Shown: positions 22,115-29,509, counted from the stretch's first letter. The stretch: DNA of 64,000 nucleotides from Clostridia bacterium (GCA_017467085.1 JAFTSW010000059.1:1604-65603); one strand, 5' to 3'. The notes: generated from the sequence alone by a model not told the origin. Program-made: numbers and translations.

Positions 22115-22143
22115 TTGACAAAAAGATAAAACGATGGTATAAT
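22115..22143 (+). promoter_or_regulatory. near-consensus sigma-A promoter (TTGACA-17-TGgTATAAT) of the carboxyltransferase operon
   Basis: TTGACA at 22115-22120, 17-nt spacer, TGgTATAAT at 22135-22143. The predicted TSS (about 22150) lies after the ORF-track ATG at 22147. Confidence 0.7.
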
Positions 22144-22179: not shown

Positions 22180-23649
22180 TTGAAAGATTCGAATTCTGTT
22201 TTCAATACGTCTTTTCCGATGGACAATCCGTCTGTGCGTCCCCTTCCCTCCGCCGAGGAGCTGAAGGAAGCTTTGGCGGCATCCGAAAAGTCGGACACCC
22301 GTCAGGTGCTGACGGCTCTTTTTGACGAAAACACCTTTGTTGAGCTTGGTGTATATATGAAAAAGAGCTTTTCCGAATACGCATACACGGGAGAAACCAA
22401 CGATTTTGAAGGGGTTATTTGCGGCTATGGCGCCATCGACGGTCAGCTGGTGTACGCCTTTGCCCAGGATATTTCCCGTATGAACGGCGCTATGGACGAT
22501 ACCCACGCCAATAAAATCGTATCCCTTTACAAGATGGCGATGCGCAATGCCGCGCCCGTGGTCGCCGTTTTCAACAGCGCAGGGGCAGACATTTACGAGG
22601 GCGTCAGCTCTCTTGCCGCCTACGGTAAGGTAATGCGCGCCGTGGCAGAGGCCTCCGGCTTTATTCCCCAGATTGCCATTGTTTCGGGCGATTGCACGGG
22701 AATTGCTTCCCCTCTCGCCGCCTGCTTTGACTTTATCGTGGCAGTTGAGGGCGCCTCCTTCTACGTGCGTTCTCCCGAATTCAGCGGAACCAACGAAGCA
22801 AACGAAACGGTAGCCGCCTTGGTTGCCAAGGACGGTGCCGCGGCTGCTGCCGAGGTTAGAACCCTTCTCTCCTATATTCCTGCCAACGCCGAGGAGGGCG
22901 TTCGCCCCGGAAGATGCGCTGACAGCTTGAATCGCTTGCTCGGCGACCAGAACTTCGGACAGGATTTGCACAATATGCTGGCAGTCCTGGCGGATAACGG
23001 CATTTACAAGGAAATTTATCCCGAAACTGCTCCCTCCTTTATGACTGCCTTTACCTGTATTGGCGGCGTAAGATGCGCCGTTTGCGGCAATACCGTTCAG
23101 GACGGAACGGCTATGCTGAGCGGTATGGAGGCGCGTAAGGCTGCTCGCTTTGTTTCCTTCTGTGACGCATTTTCTATCCCCTTGATTACCATCGTCGATA
23201 CGGCAGGCTTTGCCTTCTGCAAAAAGAAGGAAAACACCGCTTTCGTACTTTCTCTCTCCTCCCTTGCCTTTGCTTACGCCAAGTCGCAGATGCCGAAAAT
23301 CAGCGTTATTGTAGGGCGCGCTATTGGCGGGGCCTACACCCTTCTTGGCTCTAAGGCGCTTTGCGCGGACGTTGCTTACGCCCTGGCAGATACCGAAATC
23401 GGCGCTCTTTCTGCCGATGCCGCCGTTGCGTTTGCCTGGAATGACCGTGTCACGCTGGACAGAAGTCGCGAAAGCTTGGAGGAGGAATGGAAGGCGACCC
23501 TCGCCTCTCCCGTTGCTGCCGCCTGCAAGGGTGAAATTGATGACATTATCACCGTATCCGAAATGCGTCAGCGCATTTGCTCGGCGCTTCTGATGCTCGC
23601 CGCCAAGGGCACCGTATCCAAAAAGCGGCACAGCATTTTGCCGCTGTAA
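22180..23649 (+). CDS. acyl-CoA carboxyltransferase, 12S / MmdA / PccB family (divergent)
   Basis: Carboxyl_trans blocks: GVICGYGAIDGQLVYAFAQD, NSAGADIYEG, ARKAARFVSFCDAFSIPLITIVDTAGF, GRAIGGAYTLLGS. The proposed TTG start at 22180 is 7 nt after AAGGAG. The start is uncertain (alternatives 22147 and 22219). Confidence 0.85.
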   Translation: MKDSNSVFNTSFPMDNPSVRPLPSAEELKEALAASEKSDTRQVLTALFDENTFVELGVYMKKSFSEYAYTGETNDFEGVICGYGAIDGQLVYAFAQDISRMNGAMDDTHANKIVSLYKMAMRNAAPVVAVFNSAGADIYEGVSSLAAYGKVMRAVAEASGFIPQIAIVSGDCTGIASPLAACFDFIVAVEGASFYVRSPEFSGTNEANETVAALVAKDGAAAAAEVRTLLSYIPANAEEGVRPGRCADSLNRLLGDQNFGQDLHNMLAVLADNGIYKEIYPETAPSFMTAFTCIGGVRCAVCGNTVQDGTAMLSGMEARKAARFVSFCDAFSIPLITIVDTAGFAFCKKKENTAFVLSLSSLAFAYAKSQMPKISVIVGRAIGGAYTLLGSKALCADVAYALADTEIGALSADAAVAFAWNDRVTLDRSRESLEEEWKATLASPVAAACKGEIDDIITVSEMRQRICSALLMLAAKGTVSKKRHSILPL

Positions 23650-23659
23650 GGAGGACGCT

Positions 23660-23950
23660 ATGGGGTTTATTCAAAGCAATTTACCGTGGCTCATCGTGTG
23701 CTTCATTCTGCTTGCTCTGTTCTTGACCTTCTTCATTCTGTATATGCATTCTTACTTGCAAATGCGTAGAAAAAAGAAGGCAGAAGGAGAAATCAAGCAT
23801 CTGCACATTGATTCTCATGACGAAAACGAGCTTCCGGAGGACGTGCTGGTGGCACTGCTCACCGCCGCCGTTGCCTACATTTACGGCAAGAAAAAGACGA
23901 AATTCCGTGTTGTTTCCTTCCGCCACGTTTCTTCCAAGAACGGGCAATAA
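23660..23950 (+). CDS. OadG-family (decarboxylase gamma-subunit-like) small membrane protein
   Basis: 96 aa. Single N-terminal TM segment (LPWLIVCFILLALFLTFFILY), and a C-terminal PEDVLVALLTAAVAYIYG...FRVVSFRHV typical of OadG/MmdD-type anchors. RBS AAGGAGG. Confidence 0.7.
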   Translation: MGFIQSNLPWLIVCFILLALFLTFFILYMHSYLQMRRKKKAEGEIKHLHIDSHDENELPEDVLVALLTAAVAYIYGKKKTKFRVVSFRHVSSKNGQ

Positions 23951-23985: not shown

Positions 23986-24342
23986 ATGAAAAAGTTTAAT
24001 ATTACGGTGCTTGGTAAGACATACGAGGTTTTGGTGGAGGATATGGGCGACGTGATTGCCGATGCTCCCTCTACCCTTCCTACCTCCGCTTATACCACGG
24101 CTGACGTTATTCCCGCAGAGCCCGAAAAGGAGCGCCAGATTGCCTCCCCTGTCAGCGGTATCATCCGTGAAATTCTGGTTGAGGTCGGCATTAAGGTAGA
24201 GCAAGGCACGCCCCTTTGCATTTTGGAGGCAATGGAAATCCAGAACACCATCCCTGCGCCCGAGGACGGCATTGTTTCTCAAATTTTCGTACAAGAAGGC
24301 TCCGCTGTGGAGGCAGGAACAGTATTGATTACCTTACATTGA
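23986..24342 (+). CDS. biotinyl/lipoyl-domain protein, 1.3S / MmdC-like, lacking the biotinyl-lysine
   Basis: MKKFNITVLGKTYEVLVED N-terminus and the C-terminal hairpin PLCILEAMEIQNTIPAPEDGIV align with 1.3S (VLVLEAMKMETEINAPTDGKV). Glu84 (GAA at 24235-24237) replaces the Lys. Confidence 0.85.
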   Translation: MKKFNITVLGKTYEVLVEDMGDVIADAPSTLPTSAYTTADVIPAEPEKERQIASPVSGIIREILVEVGIKVEQGTPLCILEAMEIQNTIPAPEDGIVSQIFVQEGSAVEAGTVLITLH

Positions 24343-24353
24343 GGTAGGTTTTT

Positions 24354-25757
24354 ATGCCAAGATTAAAAATAACCGAAACGGTTCTTCGCGGCGCGCAGGA
24401 ATCCTTAGCCAATGCCCGTATGACAACGGCTGAAATGGTGCCCATTTTGCCTATTCTGGATAAGGTGGGCTATCATTCCTTAGATGCCTGGGGCGGTGCT
24501 ACCTTTGACACCTGCCTGCGTTACCTGAACGAGGACCCCTGGAAAAGACTGCGGATTATCCGTGCCAACGTCCGAAACACCAAGCTGATGATGGTGCTTG
24601 GCGGACAGTGCCTCTTGGGATATTCCCATTATCCCGACGATATCGTGCAGTTCTTCGTGCAAAAATCCATTGCCAACGGCATTGATATTTTGCGTATGTA
24701 TGACCCTTTGAACGACGTGCGAAACCTGGAGGTTCCCATTCGTGCGGCGAAGCGGGAAAAGGCAACCGTGCAAGGCACCATTTGCTGCACGGGCGAGAAT
24801 GCCGACAATGGCAAGTATTACCTGGATTATGCCAAGAGGCTCTTGGATTTGGGGGCAGACTCTATTTGTATCCAGGATACCGCAGGGCTTTTGCGCCCGT
24901 ACAGCGCCTATCAGATTATTAAAACACTGAAGGCGTATGATCCCAATATACAAATTCAGCTTAGCACCCACTATACCTCGGGATTGGCTTCTATGACCGT
25001 TCTAAAGGCGGTGGAGGCTGGGCTTGATATCGTGGATACCGCCATCTCCCCCTTCTCTCTCGGTGCTTCTCAGCTTTCTACCGAAACGATTTTGTCCACA
25101 CTGCGTAAAACGCCCTATGAAACCGAGCTTGATACCTACGCCTTGAACCAGGCGGCTGAATACTTCACCAGCATTAAGCTCCGCTATTTGCGTACAGGAC
25201 AGATGAATGAACGCATTTTTGATACAAACGTTTCCGCCTTGGAAACGGGTGTTTCAGGTGAAATGCAGCATCACGTACAAAAACGCCTTCGCCAAGCCAA
25301 AAAGGAAAGCCGCTTTGAGGAGGTTATGGAGGAAATTCCTCGGGTTTTGGCAGACGCGGGACACGTTCCCTTGGTTTCCCCTATATACGAGATTATCGGC
25401 ACGCAAGCCATCATCAACGTGTTGACAGGTGAGCGCTACAAGGTCGTATCGACCGATTTCCGCGAGTTAATCCGCGGCAGCTACGGCACGCTTCCCTCTC
25501 CCATCAGCCGCGATTTCCAAAGGAAAATCGTGAAGGACGGGCAGATTGTCACGGAGCGCCCTGCCCTTCAGCTGGCGCCTGCCGTTGAAAAATACCGTAT
25601 ACAGGCCGCCCCTTATGCCGAGCAGGAGGAGGACCTTCTCTCCTTGGCACTTTTTGAGCAAAGCGCCACCCAGTTCTTTGAATGGCGCAAAAAGCAACGC
25701 TATAATCTGGACGGACGGGGACGGGTTTCCTCTAAATCCGCCGTTCATCCCATATAA
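24354..25757 (+). CDS. 5S / OadA-type (HMGL-like TIM barrel + PYC_OADA) carboxyltransferase homologue, metal-site degenerate
   Basis: WGGATFDTCLRYLNEDPWKRLR, LLGYSHY, EIPRVLADAGHVPLVSPIYEIIGTQAIINVLTGERYK match the family. The canonical motifs read LRGAQES, ICIQDT and LSTHYTSG instead of LRDAHQS, (A/L)KDM and LHCH. Confidence 0.85.
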   Translation: MPRLKITETVLRGAQESLANARMTTAEMVPILPILDKVGYHSLDAWGGATFDTCLRYLNEDPWKRLRIIRANVRNTKLMMVLGGQCLLGYSHYPDDIVQFFVQKSIANGIDILRMYDPLNDVRNLEVPIRAAKREKATVQGTICCTGENADNGKYYLDYAKRLLDLGADSICIQDTAGLLRPYSAYQIIKTLKAYDPNIQIQLSTHYTSGLASMTVLKAVEAGLDIVDTAISPFSLGASQLSTETILSTLRKTPYETELDTYALNQAAEYFTSIKLRYLRTGQMNERIFDTNVSALETGVSGEMQHHVQKRLRQAKKESRFEEVMEEIPRVLADAGHVPLVSPIYEIIGTQAIINVLTGERYKVVSTDFRELIRGSYGTLPSPISRDFQRKIVKDGQIVTERPALQLAPAVEKYRIQAAPYAEQEEDLLSLALFEQSATQFFEWRKKQRYNLDGRGRVSSKSAVHPI

Positions 25758-25805: not shown

Positions 25806-25813
25806 TTGCCCTT

Positions 25814-27412
25814 TTAAGAGGGCTGGTTCTTTTTGATAAGCGACTCTATTTTTCGCTTAATTTTACTGTTTCCTCTTGCTACCCCGAACTCGGTAAAGCT
25901 AATACAGCCCTCAAAGGCATCGTTACTTATATACGCAACGCCCTTCCCGAAGAACACGGAACGAAGATTTTTACAGTCGGCAAAGGCCCCTTCGCCTATA
26001 ACGGTTACGTCGTTTGGAATAGTAACCTCCTTCAGCGTTTCGATTCCGTAGAACGCCTCTGCGCCTATCCGCTCAACTCCCTCAGGTATTATAAGGCTTT
26101 CAAGCAGAGCGCCGTTGACAAAAAAGCGCTTTAAGCTTCCAAAGGGAGCACTACCGAAAAAGTAGGAGGTCGTATCCATTTGAAACTCCGTTTGGGTATA
26201 GAGCGCCAAATCCTCTACGTACACCGTTTCTAACAGGGGGCACCCTGCAAAGGCGGTGGTGCTGGCTTTCTCTGCCCCACTAAAGTGAAGCTCCTTTAAC
26301 AGAGCCCAGCCAAAAAAGGCGTGCCCTCCCAAATAAGAAAGATGCCGCGGAATAGTGAGGCTTTCGCTACCCAGACAATCCTGGAAGGCGCAATCCCCGA
26401 TATAGGAGATATTAGGCGGCAAGGTGTCCATACGCAGATGCTGGCAGTTATAAAAGGCTCCTACCCCGATTTTCCGTATACATTTCGGCAGAGAAAGGCT
26501 ACCTAAGGAGATACAGCTTCTGAATGCGTTTTCGGGAATTTCCTCGATACCCTCCCCCTCCCAGCGCAGTTCTTCAAGTCCCGTTGCGCCATCAAAGCAG
26601 TAGGGACCTATCGAGCGAAGCTTCACGGGCAATGCAATGCCTCTTAACGCACCGCAGTCCGCAAAGGCTTTCTTTCCGATGCTCTCCAAGGACGCAGGAA
26701 GATTAATTTCCTCCAAAGCCCTGCAATAATGAAAGGCGCCTTCTTTAATGGTGTGTACGGTGTCGGGCAAAGCGACTCTCTTTAAGCCGATGCAGTTGGA
26801 AAACAGGTATTCCTCAATCACCGATACCCCGTTTGGAATATCAATGCTTTCTAATTTACTGCATCCTGCAAAAGCACCGTATCCAATCTCGGTCAAGGAA
26901 CCAGGCAAATGAACGCAACGCAGGCATAGCAGACTCTGAAAAGCGTTCTTGCCTATTGCCCTCACGCCCTCGCCGATATAAATTTCCTCGGCGTACGTAT
27001 ACGGTAGAACGGCGCTTTGGTCTACCTCTGTCACGCCCTCGATGCGGACAACCTTTTTCCTTTCCTCTTCTGTCTTTCTTTTCAAGGTGTACCGATGCGA
27101 ATCGTAGTCAAGCTCGTCCCCTTCGACAACGGAAAAGGTTTGCTTTTCTGCCTCGGCGAAATACAAAATGCCGCTTTTTTCTCCGCGGATAACGGAAATC
27201 CCAACCAGCTCCCCGTTTTCAATGACGTAGCTTTCCCGTTCAATCGATACACGGTAGGTGCTTTCAGAGGAGGAAGCAAGAACTCTGTACGGTTGGGGAG
27301 AGGAATGCCAGAAGCGCACGCATTGAAGGTAGTAGGCATCGGCAATACTGTCCCACGCCTGCCATTGCTCCTCGGAATATTGCTTGTTATTATCCATCGT
27401 GCCTGCTTTCAT
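25814..27412 (-). CDS. BspA-type leucine-rich-repeat (LRR_5) protein, no signal peptide
   Basis: Repeats of the form I(G/E)..AF..C..L..I.LP..(L/V)..I. The N-terminus MKAGTMDNNKQYSEEQWQAWD is hydrophilic. The start is ambiguous (27412 or 27397). Confidence 0.85.
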   Translation of the reverse strand: MKAGTMDNNKQYSEEQWQAWDSIADAYYLQCVRFWHSSPQPYRVLASSSESTYRVSIERESYVIENGELVGISVIRGEKSGILYFAEAEKQTFSVVEGDELDYDSHRYTLKRKTEEERKKVVRIEGVTEVDQSAVLPYTYAEEIYIGEGVRAIGKNAFQSLLCLRCVHLPGSLTEIGYGAFAGCSKLESIDIPNGVSVIEEYLFSNCIGLKRVALPDTVHTIKEGAFHYCRALEEINLPASLESIGKKAFADCGALRGIALPVKLRSIGPYCFDGATGLEELRWEGEGIEEIPENAFRSCISLGSLSLPKCIRKIGVGAFYNCQHLRMDTLPPNISYIGDCAFQDCLGSESLTIPRHLSYLGGHAFFGWALLKELHFSGAEKASTTAFAGCPLLETVYVEDLALYTQTEFQMDTTSYFFGSAPFGSLKRFFVNGALLESLIIPEGVERIGAEAFYGIETLKEVTIPNDVTVIGEGAFADCKNLRSVFFGKGVAYISNDAFEGCISFTEFGVARGNSKIKRKIESLIKKNQPS

Positions 27413-27442
27413 CCTTCCCAACCGACAAACTTTTAGTGTTTT

Positions 27443-29509
27443 TTAAGCTTCCTTCGGCGCCTCAGCAATAATCTTTTGGGCTACGTTCGCGGGAACCTCC
27501 TCATAGCGGACGAAGGTAAAGTCGAAGCGCGCGCGACCTTGGGTCATAGCACGCAGAGCCACCACGTAATCCGTCATTTCGGCGGTAGGTACTTCGGCGA
27601 TAACGACCTGCTGCCCTGCTTTATGGGCGGCTTCTATGCCGTTTACACGGCCACGGCGACGGTTGAGGTCACCCATAACGTCACCCACGTACGCATCGGG
27701 GGTATAGACACGCAGCTCACCCACAGGCTCAAGCAGCACGGGAGAGGCGTTGGGAATACCGTTCTTGTATGCCAAGGCGGCAGCCAGCTTAAAGGAAATC
27801 TCGTTACTGTCTACATCGTGATAAGAGCCGTCATACAGATTGGCAGCCAGGCGAACCAGGGGATATCCTGCCAAGACACCGTGTGCCATACAATCCTGCA
27901 AGCCCTTTTCAACAGCGGGGAAATAGTTCTTGGGTACGGAGCCGCCAACAACCGAGGTGGTAAAGGTGAGTCCCTCCTCCTCGCCGGGCTCGAATACGAT
28001 TTTAACGTGACCGTACTGACCGCTTCCGCCCGACTGCTTCTTATGCTTTCCTTCCGTGTCTACTCTCTTTCTGATGGTTTCACGGTACGGGATACGGGGC
28101 GTTTCCAGAACAACGGAGGTGCCAAAGCGATTCTTCAGCTTGGCAACGGCAATATCCAGATGGGTATCGCCCAAGCCGTACAGCACCAGCTGCTTGGTTT
28201 CGGCGTTGTTTTCAAAGCGCATAGTGGAGTCCTCCTCCAAAAGCCGCGCAATACCGCCCGAAATCTTATCCTCGTCGCCCTTTCCCGCAGGCACGACAGC
28301 CTTGGAGGCATATGCCTTGGGGTAAGTGATTTTTGCGTATTCGGCGTTGCTCTCGCCGTTGGTCAAGGTATCGTTGGTGCTGGTGGCAACCAGCTTGGAG
28401 GTCATACCGATGTCACCGCAGGCAAGCTCCTGCACCTCCTCCTGCTTCTTGCCGCGCACTACGTATATACGGGAAATCTTTTCCTGGGTGTCGCTGGTCA
28501 GGTTCCGCAGGGTGTCATCACGGCGCAAGGTACCGTTCATAACCTTAAAGAAGGACATTTTGCCCACAAAGGGGTCGGAATAGGTTTTGTATACGAAGAG
28601 GGAGGTTACGCTTCCCTCCTTATCAATGGCGATTTCGTCGCCGTCCTCGGAAAGCTCCACCTTCTTGGCGGTATGACGGGGATAGGAATCCGCAATGGTA
28701 TCAAGCAGGGTCTTAACGCCCCACATCTTGGTTGCGGCACCGCAGAACACGGGAACGATTTCACCCGAAATAATACCGTTATGGATAGCAAGCACCGAAT
28801 CCTCACGGGAAATGGGCTCACCCGCAAAGAACTGCTCCATTAATGCCTCGTCTGTCTGGGCGATGGACTCATACAGCATATTTCTGTACTTCTCCGCAAT
28901 TTCCATAAACTGCTCGGGAATAGGCAGAGATACGTAGTCACCTGTTGCGGAGTCAAAGATATAGCTTTCAAAGTCAAGCAAATCCAAGAAGCCCGTTACC
29001 TTATCCTCGTCAATCATAGGAATCTGCACGGGACAAACGGCAACACCAAAGCGCTCACGCAGGGCTTCAAATACCTTATAGAAGCGCGCCTCGGGGTCAT
29101 CAAAGCGGTTGATAAAGAAGGACTTGGGAATACCAAGCTCCTCTGCCATATCCCAGGCAAGCTCGGTGCCGACCTCAATACCTGCCTTACCGTCAACCAC
29201 GATTAAAGCGGCGTCTGCCACACGAATGGCTTGACGAACCTCGCCCTCAAAGTCGGGGTAACCGGGGGTATCCAGGACGTTGACCTTTATGTTCTGCCAA
29301 ACCAAAGGAGCGATAGAAGCGCTAATGGAAAATCCGCGACGGATTTCTTCTGCGTCATAGTCGCTGACCGTATTTCCGTCTGTCACCTTGCCGAGTCTGT
29401 CGGTTGCCTTTGCGATATACAGCATCGCTTCTGCCAGCGAGGTTTTTCCTGCGCCGCCGTGACCGAGCAAGCATACGTTTCGAATGTTTTTGGTTTCAAA
29501 CAATTCCAT
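27443..29509 (-). CDS. elongation factor G paralogue (EF-G2-like translational GTPase)
   Basis: 688 aa. G1 GHGGAGKTS, G3 DTPGYPDF, G4 variant NRFD, domain IV YHDVDSNE, and five-domain EF-G length. Confidence 0.9.
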   Translation of the reverse strand: MELFETKNIRNVCLLGHGGAGKTSLAEAMLYIAKATDRLGKVTDGNTVSDYDAEEIRRGFSISASIAPLVWQNIKVNVLDTPGYPDFEGEVRQAIRVADAALIVVDGKAGIEVGTELAWDMAEELGIPKSFFINRFDDPEARFYKVFEALRERFGVAVCPVQIPMIDEDKVTGFLDLLDFESYIFDSATGDYVSLPIPEQFMEIAEKYRNMLYESIAQTDEALMEQFFAGEPISREDSVLAIHNGIISGEIVPVFCGAATKMWGVKTLLDTIADSYPRHTAKKVELSEDGDEIAIDKEGSVTSLFVYKTYSDPFVGKMSFFKVMNGTLRRDDTLRNLTSDTQEKISRIYVVRGKKQEEVQELACGDIGMTSKLVATSTNDTLTNGESNAEYAKITYPKAYASKAVVPAGKGDEDKISGGIARLLEEDSTMRFENNAETKQLVLYGLGDTHLDIAVAKLKNRFGTSVVLETPRIPYRETIRKRVDTEGKHKKQSGGSGQYGHVKIVFEPGEEEGLTFTTSVVGGSVPKNYFPAVEKGLQDCMAHGVLAGYPLVRLAANLYDGSYHDVDSNEISFKLAAALAYKNGIPNASPVLLEPVGELRVYTPDAYVGDVMGDLNRRRGRVNGIEAAHKAGQQVVIAEVPTAEMTDYVVALRAMTQGRARFDFTFVRYEEVPANVAQKIIAEAPKEA

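Follow-up and report, generated by a model that had tools for sequence, protein, structure and literature searches.

A glutamate in place of the biotinyl-lysine in an operon-encoded biotin carrier homologue of Clostridia accompanies loss of the active site in its 5S-type partner

A homologue of the MmdC/1.3S-type biotin carriers, in which glutamate occupies the position of the biotin-accepting lysine, is encoded in the 64,000 nucleotide stretch of Clostridia bacterium DNA analysed here (the window) as the third gene of a four-gene operon of transcarboxylase type. The original prediction, made from this DNA alone, had been confined to the carrier. Comparative analysis adds that the lysine loss is specific to a clade, that the 5S-type partner has lost its active site, that the 12S-type partner is intact and that a second, canonical carrier is encoded elsewhere in the genome. 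We suggest, with a probability of about 55%, that the disabled carrier and the disabled 5S homologue are assembly or scaffold subunits, possibly regulatory, and that the working 12S subunit uses the canonical carrier.

The carrier gene (23986..24342, + strand) is translated into a 118 amino acid protein followed by a stop codon. Residues 57-117 match the Biotin_lipoyl domain (PF00364; E = 6.9e-18; 64.7 bits against a curated cut-off of 22.1), placing the protein among the biotinyl/lipoyl domain proteins. A phmmer comparison against solved structures furthermore aligned residues 49-117 without gaps to the P. horikoshii carrier 2d5d (E = 4.7e-14), with LEAMEIQNTIP of the query opposite LEAMKMENEIP, so that E84 falls in the biotinyl-lysine column. 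The DNA at 24232-24240 reads ATG GAA ATC (M83, E84, I85), and the GAA codon for Glu84 lies at 24235..24237 (+ strand). Where functional biotin carriers have the motif (A/V)-M-K-(M/L), this protein thus has A-M-E-I. In an AlphaFold2 model built with 45 homologues as input, the N-terminal strands (residues 2-8 and 11-17) are followed by a low-confidence linker and a C-terminal domain of eight strands, with pLDDT of at least 95 for residues 50-118. Predicted strands at 76-82 and 85-90 place M83-E84 (residues 83-84) at the tip of the hairpin. The N-terminus MKKFNITVLGKTYEVLVED is conserved across the family, and together with the linker, the C-terminal biotinyl domain and the adjoining carboxyltransferase genes it gives the protein the MmdC/1.3S-type architecture. 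The original prediction had proposed just such an N-terminus and biotinyl hairpin, a Glu84 encoded by GAA in place of the biotinyl-lysine, and lysines at K2, K3, K11, K48 and K70 with none in the hairpin. The PF00364 match, the alignment to 2d5d, the translation and the DNA itself bear this out; the five lysines are the only ones in the translated protein, and its hairpin holds no second lysine that might stand in for the missing one. The full-length protein also matches the NCBIfam models for MmdC, the OadA C-terminus and BCCP, all under their equivalog cut-offs; for MmdC (NF047903, MmDecMmdC) it scores 63.1 bits against a cut-off of 200, under which the canonical carrier of the same genome (121.5 bits) also falls. 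Since biotin protein ligases require a lysine at the hairpin tip, we infer that the protein cannot be biotinylated and hence would not shuttle CO2.

The Glu is a fixed property of the clade to which the window belongs. The 90%-identity clusters around the carrier comprise 11 distinct proteins, drawn from NCBI, ENA and Logan assemblies (at least 44 contigs), and Glu84 is present in 11/11; the stretch TPLCILEAMEIQNTIPAPEDGI is invariant, as is E93 (a lysine in the Lys-type relatives), and the linker varies. The original prediction had allowed for a base error at 24235, and an AAA or AAG codon misread or misassembled at this position would require as little as one base of difference (GAA for AAA). 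This has a negligible probability and is excluded by the Glu in all 11 distinct clade sequences and at least 44 contigs; Glu is furthermore retained in a clade relative only 78% identical, A-M-E-I recurs in a relative of 56% identity, and the neighbouring 5S gene carries many correlated changes.

Outside the clade lysine prevails, as became apparent from the survey of homologues that the original prediction had also proposed. An exhaustive search of 1.84 billion cluster representatives yielded 97 single-domain relatives from 50%-identity clusters, 94 of which have lysine in the biotinyl column, the exceptions being P0057 (Glu), P0088 (Ser) and P0186 (Gln). Among the 45 close members that share the unusual N-terminus MKK(L/F)(K/N)ITVLGKTYEVLVEDMG, lysine is found in 40, Glu in three (the window clade) and Asn in two. 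Within the carrier only one of 13 invariant sites is changed, namely the lysine itself. P0057 and P0088 share the N-terminus of the family and P0186 is an N-terminally truncated fragment of 88 amino acids; the hairpin of P0088 is degenerate. All three adjoin a 5S-type gene, and P0057 and P0088 are encoded in complete four-gene operons. Three further searches were less informative: 200 same-family genomes queried with the carrier returned canonical carriers only, which do not bear on Glu versus Lys, no Lys-type four-gene carrier was found among 400 same-order genomes, and a scan of all GTDB species genomes gave mostly generic EAMKMQN matches and one useful locus, L150. The two Asn variants belong to the Lys-type clade (L168:120-476, EALNMQS; L169:631-978, EAMNMQN). 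Their 5S partners are intact (for L169, in the first 67 residues available), and these K-to-N variants (P0007 and P0029) were consequently rejected as part of the pattern described below; they look like very recent losses or errors or assembly variants.

The carrier gene is flanked by co-directional genes separated by gaps of 10, 35 and 11 nt, in the order 12S-like carboxyltransferase, OadG-like anchor, carrier and 5S/OadA-like carboxyltransferase. A sigma-70-type promoter (22115..22143, + strand; TTGACA, 17-nt spacer, TATAAT, with an extended -10 TG) matches the two hexamers at 12/12 positions. Its -10 element ends at 22143, overlapping the first ATG of the 12S reading frame (22147), while a ribosome-binding site, GAAAGGAG, precedes a TTG at 22180 that coincides with the start of the orthologous 12S gene at locus L003. 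The true 12S start is therefore probably TTG 22180, and the annotated start 11 codons too early. The 12S-like (PccB/MmdA-type) carboxyltransferase accordingly spans 22180..23649 (+ strand; PF01039, 2.3e-73; the mechanical reading frame begins at ATG 22147). It is followed by a small membrane anchor of 96 amino acids (23660..23950, + strand) with an N-terminal transmembrane segment and a C-terminal FRVVSFR. The anchor has no Pfam or NCBIfam match at cut-off and was recognized by profile-profile comparison with the OadG proteins of pump operons of the family (hhalign; probability: 98.5%; E = 2.1e-15). The 5S/OadA-type homologue (24354..25757, + strand), identified by alignment to 2nx9, lacks a fused biotin domain, and a terminator-like hairpin with a T-rich tail follows the last gene (25808..25833, + strand; detected by pattern scan). 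With its strong promoter and intact ribosome-binding sites the operon looks to be expressed. The 12S, 5S and 1.3S subunit types of a transcarboxylase (EC 2.1.3.1) are thus encoded together, and the carrier among them is predicted to be without the biotin of such an enzyme (K84E).

The 5S-type partner has likewise been stripped of residues on which catalysis depends. The protein aligns with V. cholerae OadA (2nx9; 371 bits) and the transcarboxylase 5S subunit (1rqb; 343 bits), and carries the changes D13G, Q16E, R83G, K174Q, M176T, H204S and T342S, with H206 kept. The motif LRDxxQS has become LRGAQES (Asp13 to Gly), RGQN is GGQC (Arg83 to Gly), IKDMAG is IQDTAG (Lys174 to Gln), HTH is STH (His204 to Ser) and VTPxxQ is VSPIYE (Thr342 to Ser). 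In structures of 5S, OadA and the pyruvate carboxylase CT domain, the residues at these positions bind the metal (Asp, carbamylated Lys and His), bind pyruvate (Arg) or act in catalysis (Thr). The set that marks a transcarboxylase 5S subunit (Asp, carbamyl-Lys and two His as metal ligands, together with Arg and Thr) is therefore incomplete in the window protein. By comparison, the catalytic motifs (LRDGQQS, RGQ, IKDMAG and HTH) are intact in the Lys-type loci L006, L007 and L150, and also beside the Asn variant at L168. Seventeen other 5S/OadA sequences have 120 invariant sites in common; the window and L003 proteins both differ at 20 of them, which cluster on the catalytic residues; in an equally long-branched clade of canonical OadA proteins used as a control, 18 of 113 invariant sites are changed, none of them catalytic. 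The window 5S is nonetheless predicted to be a well-folded barrel (AlphaFold2; pLDDT: 87.8; pTM: 0.88), and the only segment with pLDDT below 50 is the former metal loop (residues 14-19), which varies between close relatives (LRGAQES in the window, LCGAQSA in L003).

The same pairing of defects recurs in the more distant lysine-less lineages, whose 5S proteins are 42-63% identical to that of the window and have intact reading frames. The 5S partners of P0057 (Glu), P0088 (Ser) and P0186 (Gln) lack R83, M176, Q299 and T342, and mostly lack D13 and K174. Locus by locus, D13A, R83G, K174Q, M176T and T342Y accompany the Glu carrier of L180; R83C, M176T and T342Y accompany the Ser carrier of L182, where D13, K174 and both His are kept; and D13E, R83S, K174I, M176N and T342A accompany the Gln carrier of L185. 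Judged from these alignments, loss of the carrier lysine goes hand in hand with erosion of the 5S active site across lineages. In the 5S tree the window, L003 and L180 form a firm clade (support 99), and a branch with SH-aLRT 92 can separate the lysine-less sequences from the others. A single ancient loss of lysine followed by stepwise erosion of the 5S protein is possible on this evidence, as are several independent losses of the lysine.

In the 12S-like subunit no corresponding erosion is evident. Its closest solved relatives are the PCC beta subunit and transcarboxylase 12S (about 1e-63 to 1e-67). A set of 30 12S-like family proteins has 52 invariant sites, and nearly all of these are retained in the four lysine-less lineages with an available 12S sequence (window 51/52, L003 50/52, L180 51/52, L182 52/52). 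The family departs from the classical PccB/MmdA motifs in all relatives, and its odd glycine motifs (NSAGADIYEG and GDCTGIA) are common to the Lys-type and five-gene relatives and hence form no part of the loss; a degenerate 12S subunit was rejected on these grounds.

All four operon genes are under purifying selection, and neutral evolution is excluded. In comparison with L003, whose carrier is 78% identical, they show pN of 0.12-0.16 and pS of 0.59-0.70. They are conserved to a degree similar to RF1 (pN 0.13, pS 0.68) and better than CoaE (0.30, 0.80) or SLT (0.27, 0.77) from the same pair of loci. For the carrier, comparison with L003 gives a dN/dS ratio of 0.125 and comparison with L170 (carrier 95% identical) a ratio of 0.025; in the latter comparison 5S gives 0.031, 12S 0.045 and the anchor 0.064. 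These values are approximate as synonymous sites are near saturation (dS > 1), with the contrast between pN and pS still clear. The stem branch of the window clade in the 5S tree is long (0.62) and within-clade rates of 5S and 12S are equally slow (0.25 and 0.24 substitutions per site), a pattern which, as read from the tree, is one of a burst of change and then renewed constraint. It is thus highly improbable that the operon is a decaying remnant, a transcarboxylase inactivated not long ago and now turning into a set of pseudogenes. Such decay would account for the disappearance of catalytic residues from two subunits and for the seemingly stepwise erosion of 5S, least in L182, further in L180 and furthest in the window. 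However, the four reading frames are intact in every lineage examined, including those in which 5S identity to the window has fallen to 42-63%, nonsynonymous change (pN) is much rarer than synonymous change (pS), the 5S protein evolves no faster than 12S within the clade, and the promoter and ribosome-binding sites are intact. The low pN relative to pS and the intact reading frames across lineages led us to reject pseudogene decay.

Two biotinyl domains were found in the genome (assembly G000; 1.94 Mb; 94% complete, such that one more carrier gene may have escaped assembly), namely that of the window carrier and that of a canonical carrier (LEAMKMENEI, with AMKM) on contig C7. The latter is encoded in a four-gene Na+-pump locus, OadG-BCCP-OadB-OadA (L001, L011), which has no adjoining 12S gene and in which OadA retains all catalytic motifs; the N-terminal peptide of its carrier differs from that of the four-gene type. 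A single BirA ligase scores above its cut-off. Neither a biotin carboxylase (PF02785) nor a PF01039 carboxyltransferase other than the window 12S was found in the 94% complete genome, and acetyl-CoA carboxylase consequently seems to be missing. BioY (PF02632) was not found either, from which nothing is concluded at this completeness. In the OadA tree, a long branch (0.63-0.69) sets the C7 protein and its counterpart in G776 apart from the same-genus clade, and the C7 locus may have been acquired or be fast-evolving. Two contig ends, C3:1-519 and C15:1-420 (L166 and L167), each carry part of a second OadB-type pump gene, and a stand-alone second OadB, without an adjoining carrier gene, also occurs in G027 and G776.

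Of 401 genomes sampled from the same family, 250 encode a 12S-like homologue. At the loci inspected (L074-L077 and L050-L073, same genus and family) this is the first gene of a five-gene operon, 12S-OadG-BCCP-OadB-OadA, which includes only one carrier. Since the 12S-type and 5S/OadA-type transferases here share one carrier, OadG and OadB, one pump complex may decarboxylate two substrates. The four-gene type without OadB was seen only in the window, L003, L006, L007, L150, L180 and L182-184, and in partial form on the short contigs L168-L170 and L185. The 12S proteins of five complete four-gene operons (window, L003, L006, L007 and L150) form a clade sister to the 12S of the same-genus five-gene operons (support 100/100). 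The Lys-type genome G776, which holds L150, also has a separate OadG-BCCP-OadB-OadA locus, and the arrangement in two loci is therefore older than the lysine loss.

On the scaffold reading that we favor, the sister-lineage operon, with its lysine and intact 5S, would encode everything needed for a membrane-tethered transcarboxylase. In the window lineage the carboxyl relay would be broken at two points, the carrier and 5S, with 12S preserved. The carrier would then be a pseudo-carrier, a predicted folded and selectively maintained MmdC/1.3S homologue that accepts no biotin because Glu replaces the hairpin lysine, and together with the disabled 5S it would provide non-catalytic assembly or scaffold subunits, possibly regulatory, of a complex around 12S. 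The biotin that accepts the carboxyl group at 12S may in turn be supplied in trans by the canonical carrier encoded at the C7 locus (OadG-BCCP-OadB-OadA), an arrangement for which the five-gene operon of the family, where one carrier serves both transferases, offers a precedent. We infer both the non-catalytic role of the carrier and 5S and the use of another carrier by 12S from these comparisons; the difference between the N-terminal peptides of the two carriers counts against the latter. The clade-invariant hairpin around E84 furthermore hints at a specific docking function, inhibitory or catalytic, that a pure scaffold would not obviously need.

That hairpin could instead belong to a regulator or decoy resembling the BADC proteins. 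In that case the lysine-less carrier, together with the disabled 5S, would tune the activity of the complex by occupying docking sites, on either 12S or the Na+-pump complex, at the expense of the biotinylated canonical carrier. A canonical carrier and a lysine-less paralogue do coexist in one genome, the invariance of the hairpin in the clade suggests continued docking, the N-terminal assembly peptide is conserved, the operon has a strong promoter of its own, and plant BADC proteins act in this way. However, a protein encoded stoichiometrically in one operon with the only 12S gene resembles a constitutive subunit more than a regulator, and the differences at the hairpin tip between lineages (Glu, Ser and Gln), together with the degenerate hairpin of P0088, argue against a conserved docking mimic, leaving a regulator or decoy function distinctly unlikely.

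The preservation of 12S beside lost biotin and metal sites also invites an explanation in biotin-independent chemistry, in which 12S would act as an acyl-CoA decarboxylase, as MdcD/MdcE do, or the remodelled 5S barrel would have acquired a new activity, the remaining subunits staying on as required partners. We regard this as unlikely. Strong purifying selection on all four proteins despite the loss of both sites, the intact 12S, the invariance of E84 and E93 in the clade and the weak matches of 12S to NCBIfam models of malonate decarboxylase beta/gamma subunits would all fit with it; those matches, however, fall far short of their cut-offs (55 bits, with 228 required), the loop of 5S that once held the metal is variable and predicted to be disordered, as for a lost site rather than a new one, and the residue that replaces lysine differs between the lysine-less lineages. 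The presence of Glu, Ser and Gln at this position argues against a universal catalytic role for Glu. More speculative, and rather improbable in our estimation, is the idea of a transcarboxylase turned into a biotin-free machine in which 12S decarboxylates its acyl-CoA substrate, or transfers from it, without protein-bound biotin and the clade-invariant Glu hairpin fills the old biotin site; the carrier and the metal-less 5S barrel would then, with the same low probability, be obligatory non-catalytic partners. If true, this would be a natural case of a biotin enzyme evolving away from its cofactor.

By analogy, the closest known counterparts of the lysine-less carrier are the BADC proteins of plants and algae. 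These are BCCP paralogues without the acceptor lysine that serve as non-catalytic subunits of heteromeric acetyl-CoA carboxylase, and, to our knowledge, that enzyme is the only one in which a role of lysine-less carrier paralogues has been established. Both retain the biotinyl fold, have lost the lysine, are conserved and coexist with a functional biotinylated carrier; in the present genome a carrier with the lysine accompanies the lysine-less paralogue, on which purifying selection acts (approximate dN/dS: 0.025-0.125). They differ in that BADC is of AccB type and partners biotin carboxylase in acetyl-CoA carboxylase, whereas the window carrier is of MmdC/1.3S type and belongs to a transcarboxylase/decarboxylase-type operon in a genome (94% complete) in which no biotin carboxylase was found, and in that its loss of lysine is coupled to inactivation of 5S.

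In architecture the window carrier is the same as the 1.3S subunit of Propionibacterium transcarboxylase (1dcz, 1o78) and the MmdC/GcdC carriers of the Na+-translocating decarboxylases. Its C-terminal domain aligns without gaps to 1dcz (E = 9e-10) and its operon partners are likewise of 12S and 5S type, but Glu stands for Lys in A-M-K-M and the partner 5S lacks the metal site. The five-gene operon of the family encodes homologues of all four window proteins (12S, OadG-like, carrier and 5S/OadA), while the window operon lacks OadB and has a catalytically disabled carrier and 5S, the pump, canonical carrier and intact OadA of the genome being located on the separate contig C7. With MdcD/MdcE the window 12S shares the carboxyltransferase fold and weak NCBIfam matches, and those proteins function without protein-bound biotin; the window operon, however, contains no ACP, MdcA or MdcC-type genes, such that the resemblance is one of analogy only.

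In a search of the literature, neither a lysine-less carrier of 1.3S/MmdC type nor a pseudo-5S subunit was found. The loss of lysine is here extended to transcarboxylase/Na+-decarboxylase carriers, with matched inactivation of 5S and the third subunit intact, and the arrangement persists through deep divergence (5S 42-63% identical) under strong purifying selection. It may therefore serve as a natural system for the function of pseudo-subunits in multi-enzyme complexes and for the rewiring of carboxyl shuttles in genomes with two carriers. It also calls for caution in annotation, given that proteins labelled "acetyl-CoA carboxylase biotin carboxyl carrier protein" or "oxaloacetate decarboxylase alpha" in gut/rumen-type Clostridia may be non-catalytic.

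Additional genes flank the operon in the window. The opposite strand at 25814-29509 (- strand) encodes a BspA-type LRR protein (535 amino acids) located after an EF-G-like paralogue (688 amino acids). The EF-G paralogue and a downstream radical-SAM gene are syntenic with the operon in L006, L007 and L150, and the EF-G paralogue is also retained in L180, past an inserted melibiase gene.
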